A stretch of DNA of 16,915 nucleotides from a virus (lineage: Duplodnaviria; Heunggongvirae; Uroviricota; Caudoviricetes), in the IMG/VR virus record IMGVR_UViG_2545824719_000009, one strand, 5' to 3'. Under the pieces are notes generated by a model, which saw only the letters and a list, made by a program, of their open reading frames with translations, did no database searches and was not told the origin of the DNA. Each line of letters begins with the position of its first letter. Position 1 is the stretch's first letter. Of this stretch, positions 1-4,449 are shown piece by piece. A program made the position numbers and the translations under genes.

Positions 1-123
1 GGCGATATCAAAGGCGCATGTGATCAGCTACGTCGCTGGACATATGCTGGCGGTAAGCAATGGAAAGGTCTCATGACTCGTCGTGAGATTGAGCGTGAAA
101 TCTGTTTGTGGGGTCAGCAATGA
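1..123 (+). CDS. Endolysin (phage lysozyme, RrrD / phage-21 R-like), C-terminal fragment; 5-prime end lies outside the window
   Basis: Frame 1 is open from the window edge and reads [40 protein letters not shown], ending at TGA 121-123, which overlaps the Rz ATG (ATGA). The tail matches, from memory, the C-terminus of E. coli prophage lysozymes of the RrrD type, and the position directly upstream of Rz/Rz1 is the canonical endolysin slot. Confidence 0.75.
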
Positions 124-578
124 ACAGAGTAACCGCGATTATCTCCGCTCTGGTTATCTGCATCATCGTCTGCCTGTCATGGGCTGTTAATCATTACCGT
201 GATAACGCAATCGCCTACAAAGAGCAGCGCGATAACAAGGCCAGTGAACTGGAGAAGGCGAACGCCACCATCGCTGACATGCGGAAGCGTCAACGTGATG
301 TAGCAGAACTCGACGCAAGATACACAAAGGAGCTTGCTGATGCTAACGCGACTATCGAAAGTCTCCGTGCTGATGTTTCTGCTGGGCGTAAGCGCCTGCA
401 AGTCGCCGCCACCTGTGCAAAGTCAACGACCGGAGCCAGCGGCATGGGCGATGGAGAAAGCCCAGGACTTACAGCAGATGCTGAACTCAATTATTACCGT
501 CTCCGAAGTGGAATCGACAGGATAACCGCGCAGGTTAACTACCTGCAGGAGTACATCAGGACGCAGTGCTTAAAATAA
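120..578 (+). CDS. Rz: Spanin inner-membrane subunit (i-spanin), Rz family
   Basis: ATG at 120 (the ORF track's 108 start is a GTG four codons upstream). [30 protein letters not shown]... has an N-terminal transmembrane helix followed by a charged coiled-coil region and aligns closely with recalled lambda Rz. Rz1 is embedded in the +1 frame, as in lambda. Confidence 0.9.
340..525 (+). CDS. Rz1: Spanin outer-membrane lipoprotein subunit (o-spanin), Rz1 family, nested inside Rz in another frame
   Basis: ATG at 340 is preceded by AAGGAG at 326-331. [20 protein letters not shown] carries a signal peptide with a lipobox (VSAC) and is followed by the proline-rich stretch [13 protein letters not shown] typical of Rz1. 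The gene lies entirely within Rz, matching the lambda Rz/Rz1 arrangement. Confidence 0.85.
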
Positions 579-615
579 TTTTAATTTCACTGAAATTTAA
601 CAAGTGACTTTCAGG

Positions 616-646
616 AAAATGCCTCGCAGATGCGGGGCATTTTTGT
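616..646. terminator. Candidate rho-independent terminator hairpin downstream of Rz
   Basis: Inverted repeat ATGCCTCGCA (619-628) / TGCGGGGCAT (631-640) gives a roughly 10-bp stem with one G-U pair, flanked by AAAA upstream and TTTTGT downstream. It sits in the 218-bp gap between Rz and the Rha-family gene. Confidence 0.5.
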
Positions 647-796
647 ACCGGTATTTCACCGCGCACCGCAGCGCACAATAAACACCGAACCTGACCCTTT
701 GGAATGGGCCTTTGAGGATACCAGTTAGTGCTGGCGAGCCTCGGTGGGCTGGTTTCCTGTGCGGCAAAGGTTCATTTCAAAGAAGCAGGCAACGCC

Positions 797-1345
797 ATGA
801 ATGAATTAATTGCGAATCATGACTTCGACTTTCGCCAGTTAGTTACCGCAGCAGAAGGTCAACCGGTAACTGACACCTTCCAGATTGCCAGGGCATTTGG
901 TAAACGCCATCAGCATGTGATTAGGGCTATTAAATGTTTGAGATGTTCTGAGGAATTCTCGACAACCCATTTTTGGGCCGTCGAGAAAATCAATGACTTA
1001 GGGATTTTTGACAAGAAACAGATTTACTACCGCATGGACTTTAGTGGCTTCGTTATGCTGGTTATGGGATTTAACGGAGCAAAAGCCGATGCTGTTAAAG
1101 AAGCCTATATCAATGCGTTTAACTGGATGTCAGCAGAACTCCGTAAGTACAGCGAAAGTTATGAAGCAGAACGTAACGCCGTAATGCTGGAGTACATGAA
1201 AGAGAAGGATGTCGCCAGCATGTCAGGCCGTCTGCTCAATCGCTGGGGGAGAACGAAAAAACCTCAATTGCTTGCAAAGCTGGAACGTCTGGAGAGACAG
1301 GGACAGTTTTTATTACCGGGATTCGATAAAGGTATTCAAGCCTGA
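797..1345 (+). CDS. Rha-family phage regulatory protein (phage_pRha domain)
   Basis: ATG at 797 is in frame with the 728 ORF, whose 728 start is a GTG. The stretch QPVTDTFQIARAFGKRHQHVIRAIKCL...FSGFVMLVMGFNGAKADAVKEAYINAFNWM matches the conserved Rha pattern (FGKRH.NVLR.I ... GF.G.KA...KEAYI.AFN.M). The C-terminal ~70 aa are not recognised. Confidence 0.8.
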   Translation: MNELIANHDFDFRQLVTAAEGQPVTDTFQIARAFGKRHQHVIRAIKCLRCSEEFSTTHFWAVEKINDLGIFDKKQIYYRMDFSGFVMLVMGFNGAKADAVKEAYINAFNWMSAELRKYSESYEAERNAVMLEYMKEKDVASMSGRLLNRWGRTKKPQLLAKLERLERQGQFLLPGFDKGIQA

Positions 1346-1662
1346 CACATTATGCGCTGTATCGTCGCCGTATTCCCGCATTAACCATGACCGTAGCCCG
1401 ACGGGGAACTCCTTCTGCGCGAGTGTGCGGGAATAATCAAAAACGATGCACACCGGGTTTTTACCGCGTTTATGGTTCGCGGGTTTGTCCCTCATGCTCG
1501 CCAGTCCCGTGCGGGGGTGGAAGAAACAGGACACTTACACAGATTCTTGTGGGCACGATGCTATGCCTTTCTGGATTATCCCGATGCCATTCATGCAAGG
1601 CGTTGTATCAGACGTTCGTCAGAGCTGTCAGGCTGACGGGTCCTCCCGGTGGGGTGGCCTGC

Positions 1663-1685
1663 CACGGGGCGGGAGCGTCGCGGAA
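1663..1685. other. Candidate cosN (terminase nicking site / cohesive-end site), lambda-like
   Basis: Sequence CACGGGGCGGGAGCGTCGCGG resembles recalled lambda cosN context ACGGGGCGGCGACCTCGCGGG. The putative 12-nt cohesive end GGGCGGGAGCGT is at 1667-1678 (lambda: GGGCGGCGACCT). It lies immediately upstream of the Nu1-like terminase small subunit gene, as in lambda. Confidence 0.55.
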
Positions 1686-1850
1686 AAAGGCTAGTTTTTG
1701 AAATTTCATTCGTCATCACCACTACTGTAATGTATTGATATTGCAGTGGTTTTATTTTTGTGGTGTCGATTTTGATTGTTTTTTGTTCATCACTAACACC
1801 GTTTGCCTAAAGTTGTTCGCAAGATGCATGTTTAAAACATTCTGGAGCGG
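1686..1850. promoter_or_regulatory. Candidate cosB (terminase small-subunit / IHF binding region) between cosN and the Nu1 start
   Basis: AT-rich non-coding stretch. It contains TTCATTCGTCATCACC...AATG, which resembles recalled lambda cosB sequence (CTTCTTCGTCATAACTTAATG), and a repeated TCATCAC motif near 1712 and 1787. Individual R boxes cannot be assigned with confidence. Confidence 0.4.
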
Positions 1851-1852
1851 GT

Positions 1853-2347
1853 ATGGATCGAGAGTTAAAAAATCTGACGCTGAATATCAGTCAACTGGCG
1901 GCACTGTCAGGTGTACATCGCCAGACTGCTGCGGCAAGGCTGCAAAATCTACCCGTTGCAGGGGGGCATGAAAGCAACCTCAAGCTTTATCGGGTGGTTG
2001 ATATTGTGTCGGCATTTCTGGCATTACCACCGCCGGTTGCAGAAGGCGAAATGGACGCGCATGAGCGCAAAGCCTGGTATCAGTCTGAACGTGAGCGTCT
2101 TAAGTTCGAACAGGAAACGGCACAACTCATTCCGGCCAGTGATGTCAGACGGGAGTTTGCCATCTGGGCAAAAGCGGTCGTGCAGGTGCTGGAGACATTA
2201 CCGGATATTCTTGAACGTGACTGCGGTCTGCAGCCTGCCGCTGTGAGCCGTGTTCAGTCCATTATTGATGATCTGCGCGATCAGATAGCCCTGCGGGTGA
2301 CCGAAGCAGGTGCGGATGATGAGGAGGAATTACAGCGGGAGGAGTAA
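1853..2347 (+). CDS. Nu1: Terminase small subunit, lambda Nu1 family (N-terminal HTH, cosB-binding)
   Basis: GGAG lies 7 nt upstream of the ATG. The N-terminus LNISQLAALSGVHRQTAAARLQNLPVAGG parallels the lambda Nu1 helix-turn-helix, and the overall layout follows Nu1. The TAA stop overlaps the large-subunit ATG (TAATG). Confidence 0.75.
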   Translation: MDRELKNLTLNISQLAALSGVHRQTAAARLQNLPVAGGHESNLKLYRVVDIVSAFLALPPPVAEGEMDAHERKAWYQSERERLKFEQETAQLIPASDVRREFAIWAKAVVQVLETLPDILERDCGLQPAAVSRVQSIIDDLRDQIALRVTEAGADDEEELQREE

Positions 2348-4449
2348 TGCTGAATCAGGAAACCGCAAAGGCAGCACGAACCGATTCAGGTTATATCCTT
2401 CGCGCACCGAGACGAATGCGGGTTGCTGATGCCGTTGCTCAGTATATGCGGGTGCCCATGGGGGCAGGGAACTCAGTCCCGTGGGATCCGCTGGTGGCAC
2501 CGTATGTTATTGAGCCGATGAACTGCCTGGCCTCGCGTGAATACGACGCAGTGATATTTGTTGGCCCGGCACGAACCGGCAAGACTATCGGCCTGATTGA
2601 CGGCTGGGTGATTTACAACGTGATTTGCGATCCTGCTGATATGCTGATCATACAGATGACGGAGGAAAAAGCCCGCGAACACTCCAAAAAACGACTCGCC
2701 AGAACGTTTCGCGTCAGCCCGGAAGTGGTCAGTCGCCTGAGTCCGAACAAAAATGACAACAACGTTTATGACAGAACATTCCTTGCTGGTAACTACCTGA
2801 AAATCGGCTGGCCGTCAGTCAATATCATGTCCTCATCAGATTATAAATGCGTCGCGCTGACGGATTATGACCGTTTTCCGGAAGATATTGATGGCGAGGG
2901 GGATGCCTTCTCTCTTGCCTCAAAACGTACCACCACATTTATGTCCAGTGGTATGACGCTGGTGGAGAGTTCCCCCGGCAGGGATGTGAAGGATGTGAAA
3001 TGGCGACGGACTTCACCGCATGAGGCTCCACCAACCACGGGGATACTGTCGCTCTATAACCGTGGCGATCGCCGTCGCTGGTACTGGCCCTGTCCACACT
3101 GTGGTGAGTATTTTCAGCCCTGCGGCGATGTGGTTGCTGGTTTCCGTGATATTGCCGATCCCGTGCTGGCAAGTGAGGCGGCTTATATTCAGTGTCCTTC
3201 CTGTTCAGGACGGATTATGCCTGAACAAAAACGTGAGCTGAACGGACGTGGGGTCTGGTTGCGGGATGGTGAATCCATCAATGCGGATGGCAGTCGTTAT
3301 GGTGATCCCCGACGCTCACGTATTGCGTCATTCTGGATGGAGGGTCCGGCAGCTGCTTACCAGACACTCTCGCAACTCGTTTACAAACTGCTTACTGCAG
3401 AACAGGAATACGAGACAACCGGAAGTGAAGAAACACTCAAGACGGTTATCAATACCGACTGGGGATTACCTTATCTTCCCCGTGCCAGCATGGAGCAACG
3501 AAAAAGTGAACTGCTTGAGCAGCGGGCAGAGCCAGTTCCTTCCCGCAGTGTGCCGGATGGCGTTAATTTCCTGGTGGCGACAGTGGATGTGCAGGCGGGA
3601 CGTCATCGCCGTTTTGTGGTTCAGGTAACGGGCTATGGCAGCCGTGGCGAACGCTGGATTATTGATCGTTACAACATCACGCAGTCATTGCGCGGTGACA
3701 GCGACGGGGAGAGCCAGCGAATTGATCCGGCCAGCTATCCGGAAGACTGGGATGTCCTGCTGACGGATGTTTTTCATAAAAGCTGGCCGCTGGCCTCCGA
3801 TCCTTCTCAACAAATGCGACTGATGGCAATGGCGGTGGACTCCGGCGGTGAAGACGGGGTCACTGATAATGCCTATAAATTCTGGCGTCGTTGCCGTCGT
3901 GATGGCCTTGGTAAACGTATTTACCTGTTTAAGGGCGACAGCATCCGGCGCGCAAAACTGATCACCCGTACATTCCCTGATAACACCGGACGAACGGGCC
4001 GACGGGCGCAGGCCGCAGGTGATGTGCCGCTCTGGCTTCTTCAGACGGATGCCCTGAAAGACCGGGTGAATAACGCGTTATGGCGTGACTCGCCAGGTCC
4101 CGGCTATGTGCATTTCCCTGACTGGCTGGGGAGCTGGTTTTACGACGAACTGACGTATGAAGAGCGGAGTAGTGACGGGAAATGGAGTAAGCCGGGTCGC
4201 GGTGCCAACGAAGCTTTTGACCTGATGGTGTATGCCGAGGCTCTGGTCATTCTGCATGGATACGAAAAGATCCGCTGGCCGGATGCACCGGAGTGGGCGA
4301 GCCGGGAAACCTGGCTGGAGTGTGTCCCGGACAGTACCGAACCGTCACCCTCACCGGAACCGGTATCCACGCCTGTTAAAAAACAAAAACGGAAGAAAAC
4401 AGTAACTGACGATGTTAACCCCTGGCTGACTTCCGGAGGATGGTTATGA
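2347..4449 (+). CDS. A: Terminase large subunit, lambda gpA family
   Basis: 700 aa, with GGGAGGAG upstream. Contains the ATPase P-loop-like GPARTGKT and the motif WYWPCPHCGEYFQ, which parallels lambda gpA ACPHCGEEQYLKFG. Size and position match gpA. Confidence 0.9.
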   Translation: MLNQETAKAARTDSGYILRAPRRMRVADAVAQYMRVPMGAGNSVPWDPLVAPYVIEPMNCLASREYDAVIFVGPARTGKTIGLIDGWVIYNVICDPADMLIIQMTEEKAREHSKKRLARTFRVSPEVVSRLSPNKNDNNVYDRTFLAGNYLKIGWPSVNIMSSSDYKCVALTDYDRFPEDIDGEGDAFSLASKRTTTFMSSGMTLVESSPGRDVKDVKWRRTSPHEAPPTTGILSLYNRGDRRRWYWPCPHCGEYFQPCGDVVAGFRDIADPVLASEAAYIQCPSCSGRIMPEQKRELNGRGVWLRDGESINADGSRYGDPRRSRIASFWMEGPAAAYQTLSQLVYKLLTAEQEYETTGSEETLKTVINTDWGLPYLPRASMEQRKSELLEQRAEPVPSRSVPDGVNFLVATVDVQAGRHRRFVVQVTGYGSRGERWIIDRYNITQSLRGDSDGESQRIDPASYPEDWDVLLTDVFHKSWPLASDPSQQMRLMAMAVDSGGEDGVTDNAYKFWRRCRRDGLGKRIYLFKGDSIRRAKLITRTFPDNTGRTGRRAQAAGDVPLWLLQTDALKDRVNNALWRDSPGPGYVHFPDWLGSWFYDELTYEERSSDGKWSKPGRGANEAFDLMVYAEALVILHGYEKIRWPDAPEWASRETWLECVPDSTEPSPSPEPVSTPVKKQKRKKTVTDDVNPWLTSGGWL

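Follow-up and report, generated by a model that had tools for sequence, protein, structure and literature searches.

A conserved RNA leader precedes the late gene rha in a lambda-like phage and may act as a translational lock

The phage gene rha belongs to the late operon, and its product, when deregulated, blocks phage growth in hosts defective in integration host factor (IHF), as summarized from the classical work (PMC4936722). The phages in which the gene was defined all carry it at the same place: the order in P22 is gene 15/Rz1, rha and gene 3 (packaging genes); that in phi80 is Rz/Rz1, an annotated terminator, rha (recorded as 'DNA synthesis inhibition in IHF- hosts'), further genes and cosQ; and that in ES18 is Rz, an annotated terminator and gp79 ('affects growth in host lacking IHF; similar to P22 Rha'). 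Here we analyzed the copy of rha in IMG/VR virus record IMGVR_UViG_2545824719_000009, a 16,915-nucleotide stretch of DNA from a tailed phage (Caudoviricetes) that is called the window below, together with the leader that separates this gene from an upstream terminator. A Rha domain, a position after Rz/Rz1, an upstream terminator and a leader are common to the window and to P22 rha (ORF201), phi80 rha and ES18 gp79, although the phages themselves differ, the window phage being a lambda-like cos siphovirus with a DUF1441/gpA terminase and P22 a pac podovirus. An initial annotation, made from the sequence alone, had presented the Rha-family gene as a notable occupant of its slot and had treated the leader as inert, noncoding DNA. 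The observation itself is confirmed, and the interpretation was partly supported. Judged by gene order, the post-lysis, pre-packaging slot is the canonical position of rha, and the window gene is a routine copy, a known gene in a known place. The value of the locus lies not in this gene, which has been known since 1989-1995 and sits in a textbook position, but in the leader, which carries a conserved RNA structure and is the most informative part of the locus.

The leader comprises the 150 nt at 647-796, between the terminator and the ATG, and is ~97% identical to that of P22, above the identity seen in the middle of the coding region. The features on which the argument depends, in window coordinates, are as follows.

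616-646, plus strand: intrinsic-terminator-like hairpin after Rz, AAAAUGCCUCGC AGAU GCGGGGCAUUUU followed by UGU
661-674, plus strand: small hairpin P0, GCGC / loop ACCGCA (665-670) / GCGC
690-789, plus strand: long imperfect leader hairpin of ~100 nt, minimum-free-energy fold of -46.8 kcal/mol
690-693/786-789, 697-714/765-782 and 715-718/755-758, plus strand: foot, lower and mid stems of the long hairpin in this fold
720-726/747-753 and 730-734/741-745, plus strand: upper stem and weak apical stem of the long hairpin in this fold
759-764, plus strand: 6-nt bulge on the 3' strand of the hairpin, GUGCGG (family consensus GUGCGA, with G at the third position in 50 of 52)
666-670/760-764, plus strand: pairing of the P0 loop with the bulge, a covarying complementarity
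732-736, plus strand: apical UGGCG, complementary to CGCCA at 793-797
793-797, plus strand: CGCCA, the last 4 nt of the spacer and the A of the AUG, target of the apical loop
785-789, plus strand: Shine-Dalgarno-like GCAGG, 7 nt before the ATG, paired with CCUG at 690-693 in the hairpin foot
797-1345, plus strand: rha coding sequence, ortholog of P22 rha/ORF201, an intact open reading frame (ORF) of 182 aa from ATG 797 to TGA 1345

Conservation of the fold was assessed over rha loci sampled from viral contigs and from genomes, one for each species, which gave ~55 distinct loci with Rha identity down to ~41% and genera including Mixta, Erwinia, Rouxiella, Rosenbergiella, Providencia, Morganella, Pantoea, Xenorhabdus and Gilliamella. 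When the diverged leaders were folded individually, all of them adopted one common architecture despite their sequence differences: a CCUUU-type segment, a lower stem of ~18 bp and a 4-bp mid stem, read from the 5' end toward the apex; then a 6-7-nt bulge confined to the 3' strand, an upper stem and a variable apex; and, at the 3' foot, a Shine-Dalgarno AAGG separated from the AUG by 6-10 nt, in most cases by 7-10. With 50 distinct leaders in a plain MAFFT alignment, 79% of cells were paired, compared with 68% after shuffling, and 198 double-sided changes were counted against 70 in shuffled controls (0 of 500 shuffles as high); registers slid along this sequence-only alignment yielded 39-61% paired. 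A model-fitted alignment, which is biased toward the structure, gave 85.5% versus 69.5% paired and 262 versus 86 double changes. RNAalifold recovered only the inner stem from the plain alignment and was replaced by projected single-sequence folds together with a covariance model. In 43 of 54 leaders the sense strand gave the better fold of the two strands, and G-U pairs were many, indicating that the structure is that of an RNA transcribed from the rha strand.

The covariance model, built from the collected leaders, scored the window at 104 bits and produced nine matches outside its training set, all of which ended exactly at an ATG. The matches included the following.

phi80 rha: 103 bits
phi80 gene 66 (N15 gp59-like), just before cosQ, L118 7251-7355: 42 bits
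Rha+ANT gene (L092): 92.5 bits
ANT gene (L073): 70.3 bits
933W 'ant' (P22_AR_N + ORF11CD3): 86.6 bits
ECP1 KilA-N + ORF11CD3 gene: 99.3 bits
ECP1 HNH endonuclease gene, adjoining terminase, L123 3394-3511: 69.3 bits
ES18 gp79: 98.7 bits

Since these matches precede different genes, the leader is a module common to different late accessory genes and not specific to rha. The model found no match in ~111 kb of lambda, N15 and a rha-less relative of the window (L122); N15 gp59 has both a terminator and a ~110-nt leader, yet gave no match. The window's own leader variant, searched alone by blastn, was present in 78 phage records, among them P22, ES18 and several Stx2-converting phages, and in 840 of 5426 complete E. 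coli genomes, with up to 5 copies in a genome. Rfam 15, its C4 and isrK models included, yielded no match to the leader at gathering score, none at E up to 5 in window 540-1900 and none at E up to 1 in six diverse loci. Covariation above controls, combined with the recovery of new instances by the structure model, provides good support for regarding the leader as a conserved RNA element, widespread and apparently uncatalogued. Among the carriers, phi80 gene 66 and the ECP1 HNH endonuclease gene are leader-bearing genes outside the 'Bro network' regulators (discussed later), and a Rosenbergiella prophage with two leader cassettes carries, upstream of the lysis genes, tRNA genes and an abiF RNA (Rfam RF03085, 59 bits; L092 12-230).

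The fold is predicted to occlude the ribosome-binding site. The unpaired probability of the AGG core of the Shine-Dalgarno sequence was 0.003 in the window, and over 54 leaders its median was 0.24, with values <0.5 in 85%. Two further pairings reach across the leader. P0 has the form GCGC-N4-9-GCGC in 42 of 55 loci, and the variants GCGCC..GGCGC and UGCC..GGCA identify it as an inverted, not a direct, repeat; its loop and the long-hairpin bulge are complementary, as CCGCA/UGCGG in the window, UCUCAC/GUGAGA in phi80 and UCACAC/GUGUGA in Gilliamella, and elsewhere as UGCCC/GGGCA, CCGCAAUG/CAUUGCGG, UUCUCC/GGAGAA and UUCGUAC/GUACGAA. Likewise, across loci the 5-8 nt that directly precede and run into the AUG have their complement in the apical region: UGGCG/CGCCA in the window and, in other loci, AUAGCGAU/AUCGCUAU, UAUCGCU/AGCGAUA, UGAUGCU/AGCAUCA, AUGGUGU/ACACCAU and UCGGAG/CUCCGA. 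A mutual-information scan for pseudoknots on the model alignment was ambiguous, the apical region being poorly aligned, and a column-wise count of P0/bulge pairs was dropped on account of MAFFT register shifts between subfamilies; permutation tests of duplex energy were used instead. Cognate duplexes were more stable than non-cognate ones for both the apical loop with the pre-AUG segment (-6.0 versus -3.9 kcal/mol) and the P0 region with the bulge (-9.6 versus -8.1 kcal/mol), with 0 of 5000 permutations as low in either case. A pairing of the bulge with the CGC before the AUG was considered as well and rejected, phi80 having no complementarity there.

These pairings bear on the possibility that the inverted repeats act as DNA, whether as sites for IHF or another protein, as a cruciform, or as a recombination hotspot that moves the cassette. 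Published genetics does tie the control of rha to IHF (PMC4936722; phi80 and ES18 records), and the presence of the leader before many unrelated genes is what a recombination module would show. However, the loop/bulge and loop/AUG complementarities would be meaningless in duplex DNA, the many G-U pairs and the better folding of the sense strand (43 of 54) point to RNA, and the window has just two exact matches to the IHF consensus, at 988-1000 and 1728-1740, with none in 600-800. We regard a DNA-level role as very improbable.

A second challenge to the RNA concerns the start of the protein. RefSeq and P22 records begin rha at GTG 728 (205 aa; 201 aa for P22 ORF201), and were translation to begin there, most of the 'leader' would be coding sequence and not RNA structure. 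This start is the one given by databases, its frame is open, and GAGGA lies 9 nt upstream in both the window and P22. On the other side, in 27 of 33 diverged genome loci the frame is already closed 5' of the conserved ATG, and the longest possible ORF there begins at the equivalent of ATG 797; rha homologs are typically 177-183 aa long, and the PHROG and Pfam profiles start at the ATG-797 form; the leader region displays base-pair covariation rather than codon-like conservation; and the covariance-model matches always end at the conserved ATG. Together these comparisons make the database start probably wrong and ATG 797, the start adopted in the initial annotation, the better supported of the two; that the protein really begins at GTG 728 seems to us highly unlikely. 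The annotated rha starts (GTG 728, P22 ORF201 and phi80 43739) need correction. The database starts place the beginning of rha inside the leader hairpin, at window 728-796, in P22 (L002 3165-3233) and in phi80 (record position 43739; L118 5740-5775); the annotated phi80 start is 36 nt within the hairpin, and the conserved phi80 ATG is at L118:5776. The 1995 paper of Henthorn and Friedman on rha is said to describe two possible starts with IHF consensus sites around them.

The hairpin that the initial annotation had placed at 616-646, ahead of the 150-nt leader, was borne out. It has a G+C-rich stem of 12-13 bp, a 4-nt loop and a T-run, and its energy of -22.4 kcal/mol (z = -3.7) was equaled by 0 of 200 shuffles; a simple scan of the window did not list it. 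The P22 copy is identical but for one A-to-G change that keeps a wobble pair. Of the 55 distinct loci, 51 have a terminator-like hairpin; its distance from the ATG, counted from the end of the hairpin, is mostly ~145-160 nt (range 126-239), and the stem sequences vary among loci. The phi80 and ES18 records annotate a terminator at the equivalent place. The promoter that the initial annotation had proposed to look for within the leader did not materialize: no sigma-70-like promoter was predicted on the plus strand of 1-2400, leader included. A conserved GCGCA-TNTNAA stretch, considered by eye as a -10 element, was rejected, its last position not being T and no -35 element being present. Between the terminator tail and P0 (647-660 and equivalents), leaders carry one of two conserved single-stranded alternatives, YGCAGUAAAC (phi80 type) or AUUUCAC (window/P22 type).

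An RNA corresponding to the hairpin has been reported from P22. In the accessible part of its description (PMC13397905, 2026), this 89-nt RNA, P22F, is confirmed by reverse transcription PCR in P22-infected cells and given as having 'No known function'; the same part offers an analogy to IsrK only and describes no structure. P22F corresponds to window 703-791, from which it differs at one base, and stops 6 nt short of the rha ATG; it consists of the long-hairpin body and the Shine-Dalgarno sequence of the leader, whose fold, covariation and spread were worked out here.

We propose that the leader is a cis-acting translational lock on a Q-dependent late gene, keeping the output of Rha low, and consider this the probable function. 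With a terminator directly upstream and no visible promoter, rha would be read mainly by Q-modified, terminator-resistant polymerase late in infection, which agrees with the literature. The leader would fold, as P0 and the ~100-nt hairpin, ahead of synthesis of the ribosome-binding site, with the P0 loop binding the mid-hairpin bulge; it would then capture the Shine-Dalgarno sequence through the 5' foot of the hairpin, and the bases before and including the A of the AUG through the apical loop. Covariation supports all of these structures. With its ribosome-binding site hidden, the abundant late message would yield little Rha, and a nuclease-resistant core of the leader would plausibly accumulate as the 89-nt P22F. 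Tight control of this kind is in keeping with the published finding that deregulated Rha stops phage growth in IHF-deficient hosts. If correct, the proposal would explain how dosage-sensitive DNA-binding or nuclease accessory genes are nearly silenced within a strongly transcribed late operon, would assign a function to P22F, and would supply concrete mutations with which to revisit the lethality of Rha to phage in IHF-deficient hosts.

Several points weigh against a lock acting in cis. The lowering of translation is a prediction from the fold. The apical loop and the AUG stand at opposite ends of a ~35-bp helix, so that pairing in cis needs a sharp bend, for which a bend-back at the bulge/P0 junction, with arms of similar length, is plausible. 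The short second phi80 copy, before gene 66, has no apical/AUG complementarity, and one leader subfamily has its Shine-Dalgarno sequence just outside the stem and only about half paired. The permutation tests retain some shared ancestry, which the use of 20 representatives with <72% leader identity (0 of 20000 permutations as low for both pairings) reduces and does not abolish. The reported ends of P22F (703 and 791) are unlike those of a simple double-strand cut. Further, a translational lock offers no account of the control of rha by IHF, a DNA-binding protein, and fold searches with a structure model of Rha gave no significant match.

The accumulation of P22F could also mean that the hairpin is chiefly a trans-acting antisense RNA, like C4 of P1/P7 or the CI RNA of P4, that is cut from the late transcript and whose loops bind the ribosome-binding region of rha/ant-type messages that share its specificity, whether these come from the phage itself or from co-resident or superinfecting phages; specificity would then be determined by the covarying loops. 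A stable 89-nt RNA spanning the hairpin in P22 infection (PMC13397905) is what such a role would produce, and the many distinct classes of loop/target sequence, the different loop/target pairs of the two cassettes in one phage (L092), and the occurrence of up to 5 copies of the leader variant per E. coli genome are all in keeping with it. The logic is also that of C4/icd-ant, in which a co-transcribed RNA masks the binding site of the anti-repressor operon (PMC10111431), and the rha loci do have co-transcribed upstream loops that are complementary to, and covary with, a downstream ribosome-binding region. Nevertheless, the absence of a predicted promoter and the terminator upstream leave no obvious expression in a lysogen; both targets are in the same molecule, 10 to 100 nt away, so that folding in cis should win kinetically; pairing in cis alone predicts covariation; and neither the Rfam C4 nor the isrK model matched even at E up to 1-5. 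P22F, as reported, stops before the CGCCA target and keeps the Shine-Dalgarno sequence, which a processed cis element fits equally. We therefore consider a chiefly trans-acting RNA unlikely.

Alternatively, the hairpin may be mainly an element for RNA processing or stability, such as an RNase III site, that separates rha from the lysis message, with any effect on translation being secondary. Some leaders (e.g., that of L073) form a near-perfect duplex of 22-26 bp with a one-sided bulge, and bulged duplexes of this kind resemble RNase III substrates such as those of the T7 early messages and the lambda N leader. The discrete fragment reported as P22F would be expected as well. A processing site leaves unexplained, however, the covarying complementarities of the Shine-Dalgarno sequence with the foot and of the AUG-proximal segment with the apical loop, as well as the P0/bulge pairing, and the ends given for P22F are not a 2-nt-staggered pair across the stem; we think such a primary role doubtful. 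None of the alternatives explains the full set of pairings as well as a lock in cis does. Literature on Stx-phage ant, IbfA, anti-small RNAs (anti-sRNAs) and Pas sRNAs held nothing bearing on the rha locus.

A broader and decidedly tentative extension of the lock, to which we give little weight, is that the leaders form an uncatalogued class of modular, pseudoknotted RNA 'locks' before late accessory genes, in which programmable loop pairings confer a private specificity on each cassette and the processed RNA may have a further, trans effect on matching cassettes carried by co-resident prophages. The carriers of such a class would be Rha, ANT, KilA-N, P22_AR_N and HNH genes in lambdoid and P22-like phages of Enterobacterales and Gilliamella. 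Were it real, it would amount to RNA-level immunity for late anti-repressor-type genes, and possibly to the missing link in the 30-year-old Rha/IHF phenotype.

The protein itself conforms to expectation. The 182-aa ORF on the late strand had been assigned to the Rha family, and the profile searches agree: Phage_pRha (PF09669) scored 75.4 bits against a cut-off of 29.9, NCBIfam TIGR02681 scored 73.3 bits against 45.95 (E 1.5e-20), and PHROG 518, 'Rha-like transcriptional regulator', matched at E 4.5e-87. The C-terminal ~70 aa, which had been called unassigned, match ORF11CD3 at 82 bits (cut-off 25) over profile positions 1-54 of 54. The domains are placed as follows.

869-1132, plus strand: Rha domain, residues 25-112 (Pfam Phage_pRha PF09669, E 5.4e-21)
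1157-1318, plus strand: ORF11CD3 domain, residues 121-174 (Pfam PF10549, E 3.6e-23)

P22 Rha also has the ORF11CD3 C-terminus, and one database source names a homolog 'Bacteriophage P22 Orf201 C-term...'. With 85% aa identity to P22 Rha (170 of 199 residues), the window protein falls in the P22 rha ortholog group, and growth inhibition in IHF-deficient hosts would be predicted for it from this identity. DNA identity to P22 is 91% across window 564-1248, and Rz, terminator, leader and rha are collinear between the two at 91-97%; phi80 Rha, in contrast, is only 37% identical to the window protein and is without ORF11CD3. Strong divergence from P22 is confined to the middle of the Rha domain (~890-985), and both ends of the gene are near-identical, forming an intragenic mosaic.

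The window protein is thus a two-domain member, with an N-terminal Rha and a C-terminal ORF11CD3 domain, of the 'Bro network', a set of phage regulators that shuffle domains and in some cases bear the label anti-repressor; for this protein 'anti-repressor' is a database label only (PHROG; RefSeq P22), and a Pfam search found neither ANT nor P22_AR domains in it. Across 46 aligned homologs, with overall identity to the window protein down to ~50%, residues 123-158 of ORF11CD3 are near-invariant and form the most conserved part, and the N-terminal half varies widely. The corresponding stretch at 1163-1270 carries a motif (...E.ERNA.MLEYMKEKDVASMSGRLLNRWGR.KKP.L...) that is almost unchanging among genera, and its differences from P22 are synonymous, indicating that the constraint acts on the protein; the pattern suggests a conserved partner for this segment. 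Homologs retrieved with the C-terminal 71 aa were nearly all fragments, and no additional architectures appeared among them. The structure prediction that had been called for yielded an AlphaFold2 model of moderate confidence, in which the Rha domain is a mixture of helices and strands (pLDDT ~84-93), and no significant fold match. By sequence, no solved structure was related to the protein at E up to 1, and PADLOC defense-system models matched it in 0 families.

The initial annotation was also upheld in placing rha between Rz/Rz1 and cos. The upstream neighbor is the Rz spanin at 108-578 (Pfam Phage_lysis, E 3e-39), cos lies downstream at ~1667, and a small terminase of DUF1441 type (1853-2347) and a large terminase of gpA type (2347-4449) follow. 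Beyond terminase, the rest of the window consists of virion genes according to the RefSeq annotation of a 97.5%-identical prophage, leaving rha as the only non-structural cargo, as had been claimed. That it is accessory was evident from a comparison by blastn of window 1-2400 with this prophage (L122), which lacks rha: homology was restricted to 1-569 and 1325-2400. The features of this region are the following.

570-1324, plus strand: dispensable rha cassette (terminator, leader and nearly all of rha), from comparison with rha-less relatives
1636-1678, plus strand: cos region (context), with cosQ-like ACGGGTCCTCCCGGTG at 1636-1651 and cosN-like GGGCGGGAGCGT at 1667-1678, from alignment with the lambda and N15 ends

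The cassette is a dispensable insertion in the late operon that separates the lysis genes from cos, and its three parts, terminator (616-646), leader RNA (647-796) and gene, travel together. The rha-less relative retains the final 21 nt of rha, GATAAAGGTATTCAAGCCTGA (L122 845-865; window 1325-1345), and the retention of these seven codons locates the right-hand recombination junction inside the 3' end of rha. In place of the cassette, rha-less relatives have a segment of ~296 bp that contains a hypothetical ORF of 50 aa and two terminator-like hairpins. The presence/absence polymorphism among relatives is that of a moron; a moron would also have its own promoter upstream and a terminator downstream and be expressed from the prophage, whereas the cassette has no predicted promoter and its terminator lies upstream.

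Two items in the interval from rha to cos look like non-genes or remnants: ORF 1387-1701 on the plus strand, with a weak PHROG match to phrog_6954 'Rz-like spanin' over its first 26 residues only (E 8e-8), and 1313-1495 on the minus strand, a 60-aa hypothetical protein of RefSeq that overlaps the end of rha. The cosN-like GGGCGGGAGCGT aligns with lambda GGGCGGCGACCT. Between it and the small terminase gene, in the place of lambda cosB/I1, window 1721-1750 holds an AT-rich 13-bp inverted repeat followed by a T-run, with an exact IHF consensus (1728-1740, minus strand). Window 560-1860 has a 100% match in an E. coli Ec-U11 prophage (L001 3304-4899), which has an annotated anti-phage dCTP deaminase adjoining its integrase and has lost most head and tail genes by deletion.

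Compared with described systems, the cassette resembles the lambda bor moron in its setting, both occupying the slot between Rz and cos and varying in presence between close relatives. Unlike bor, which lies on the opposite strand and is expressed in the lysogen from its own promoter, the rha cassette has the orientation of the late operon, no predicted promoter, and a terminator upstream rather than downstream. The closest parallels to the leader are C4 in immI of P1/P7 (c4-icd-ant), the CI RNA of P4 and Salmonella IsrK, in each of which a structured RNA lies in the same transcript just 5' of an anti-repressor-type gene; its loops are complementary to the ribosome-binding region of that gene, with loop and target covarying between phages, as in the window leader (PMC10111431). 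The leader differs from C4 and isrK in having no Rfam match, in lying in a late operon behind a terminator and in having no predicted promoter of its own. It differs further in that its targets are immediately adjacent, making action in cis probable, and in that one of its two pairings, that of the P0 loop with the bulge, is internal and not aimed at the message. In the lambda N leader, with its RNase III site, and in the lambda cIII structure, a hairpin hides the ribosome-binding site of a dosage-sensitive regulator, as we propose for the window leader, which is, however, far larger (150 nt), has two extra covarying tertiary pairings and serves as a module for unrelated genes. The kind of leader is therefore familiar, both in its masking of a ribosome-binding site and in its C4-like logic, and it is the modular, double-kissing design that is unusual.

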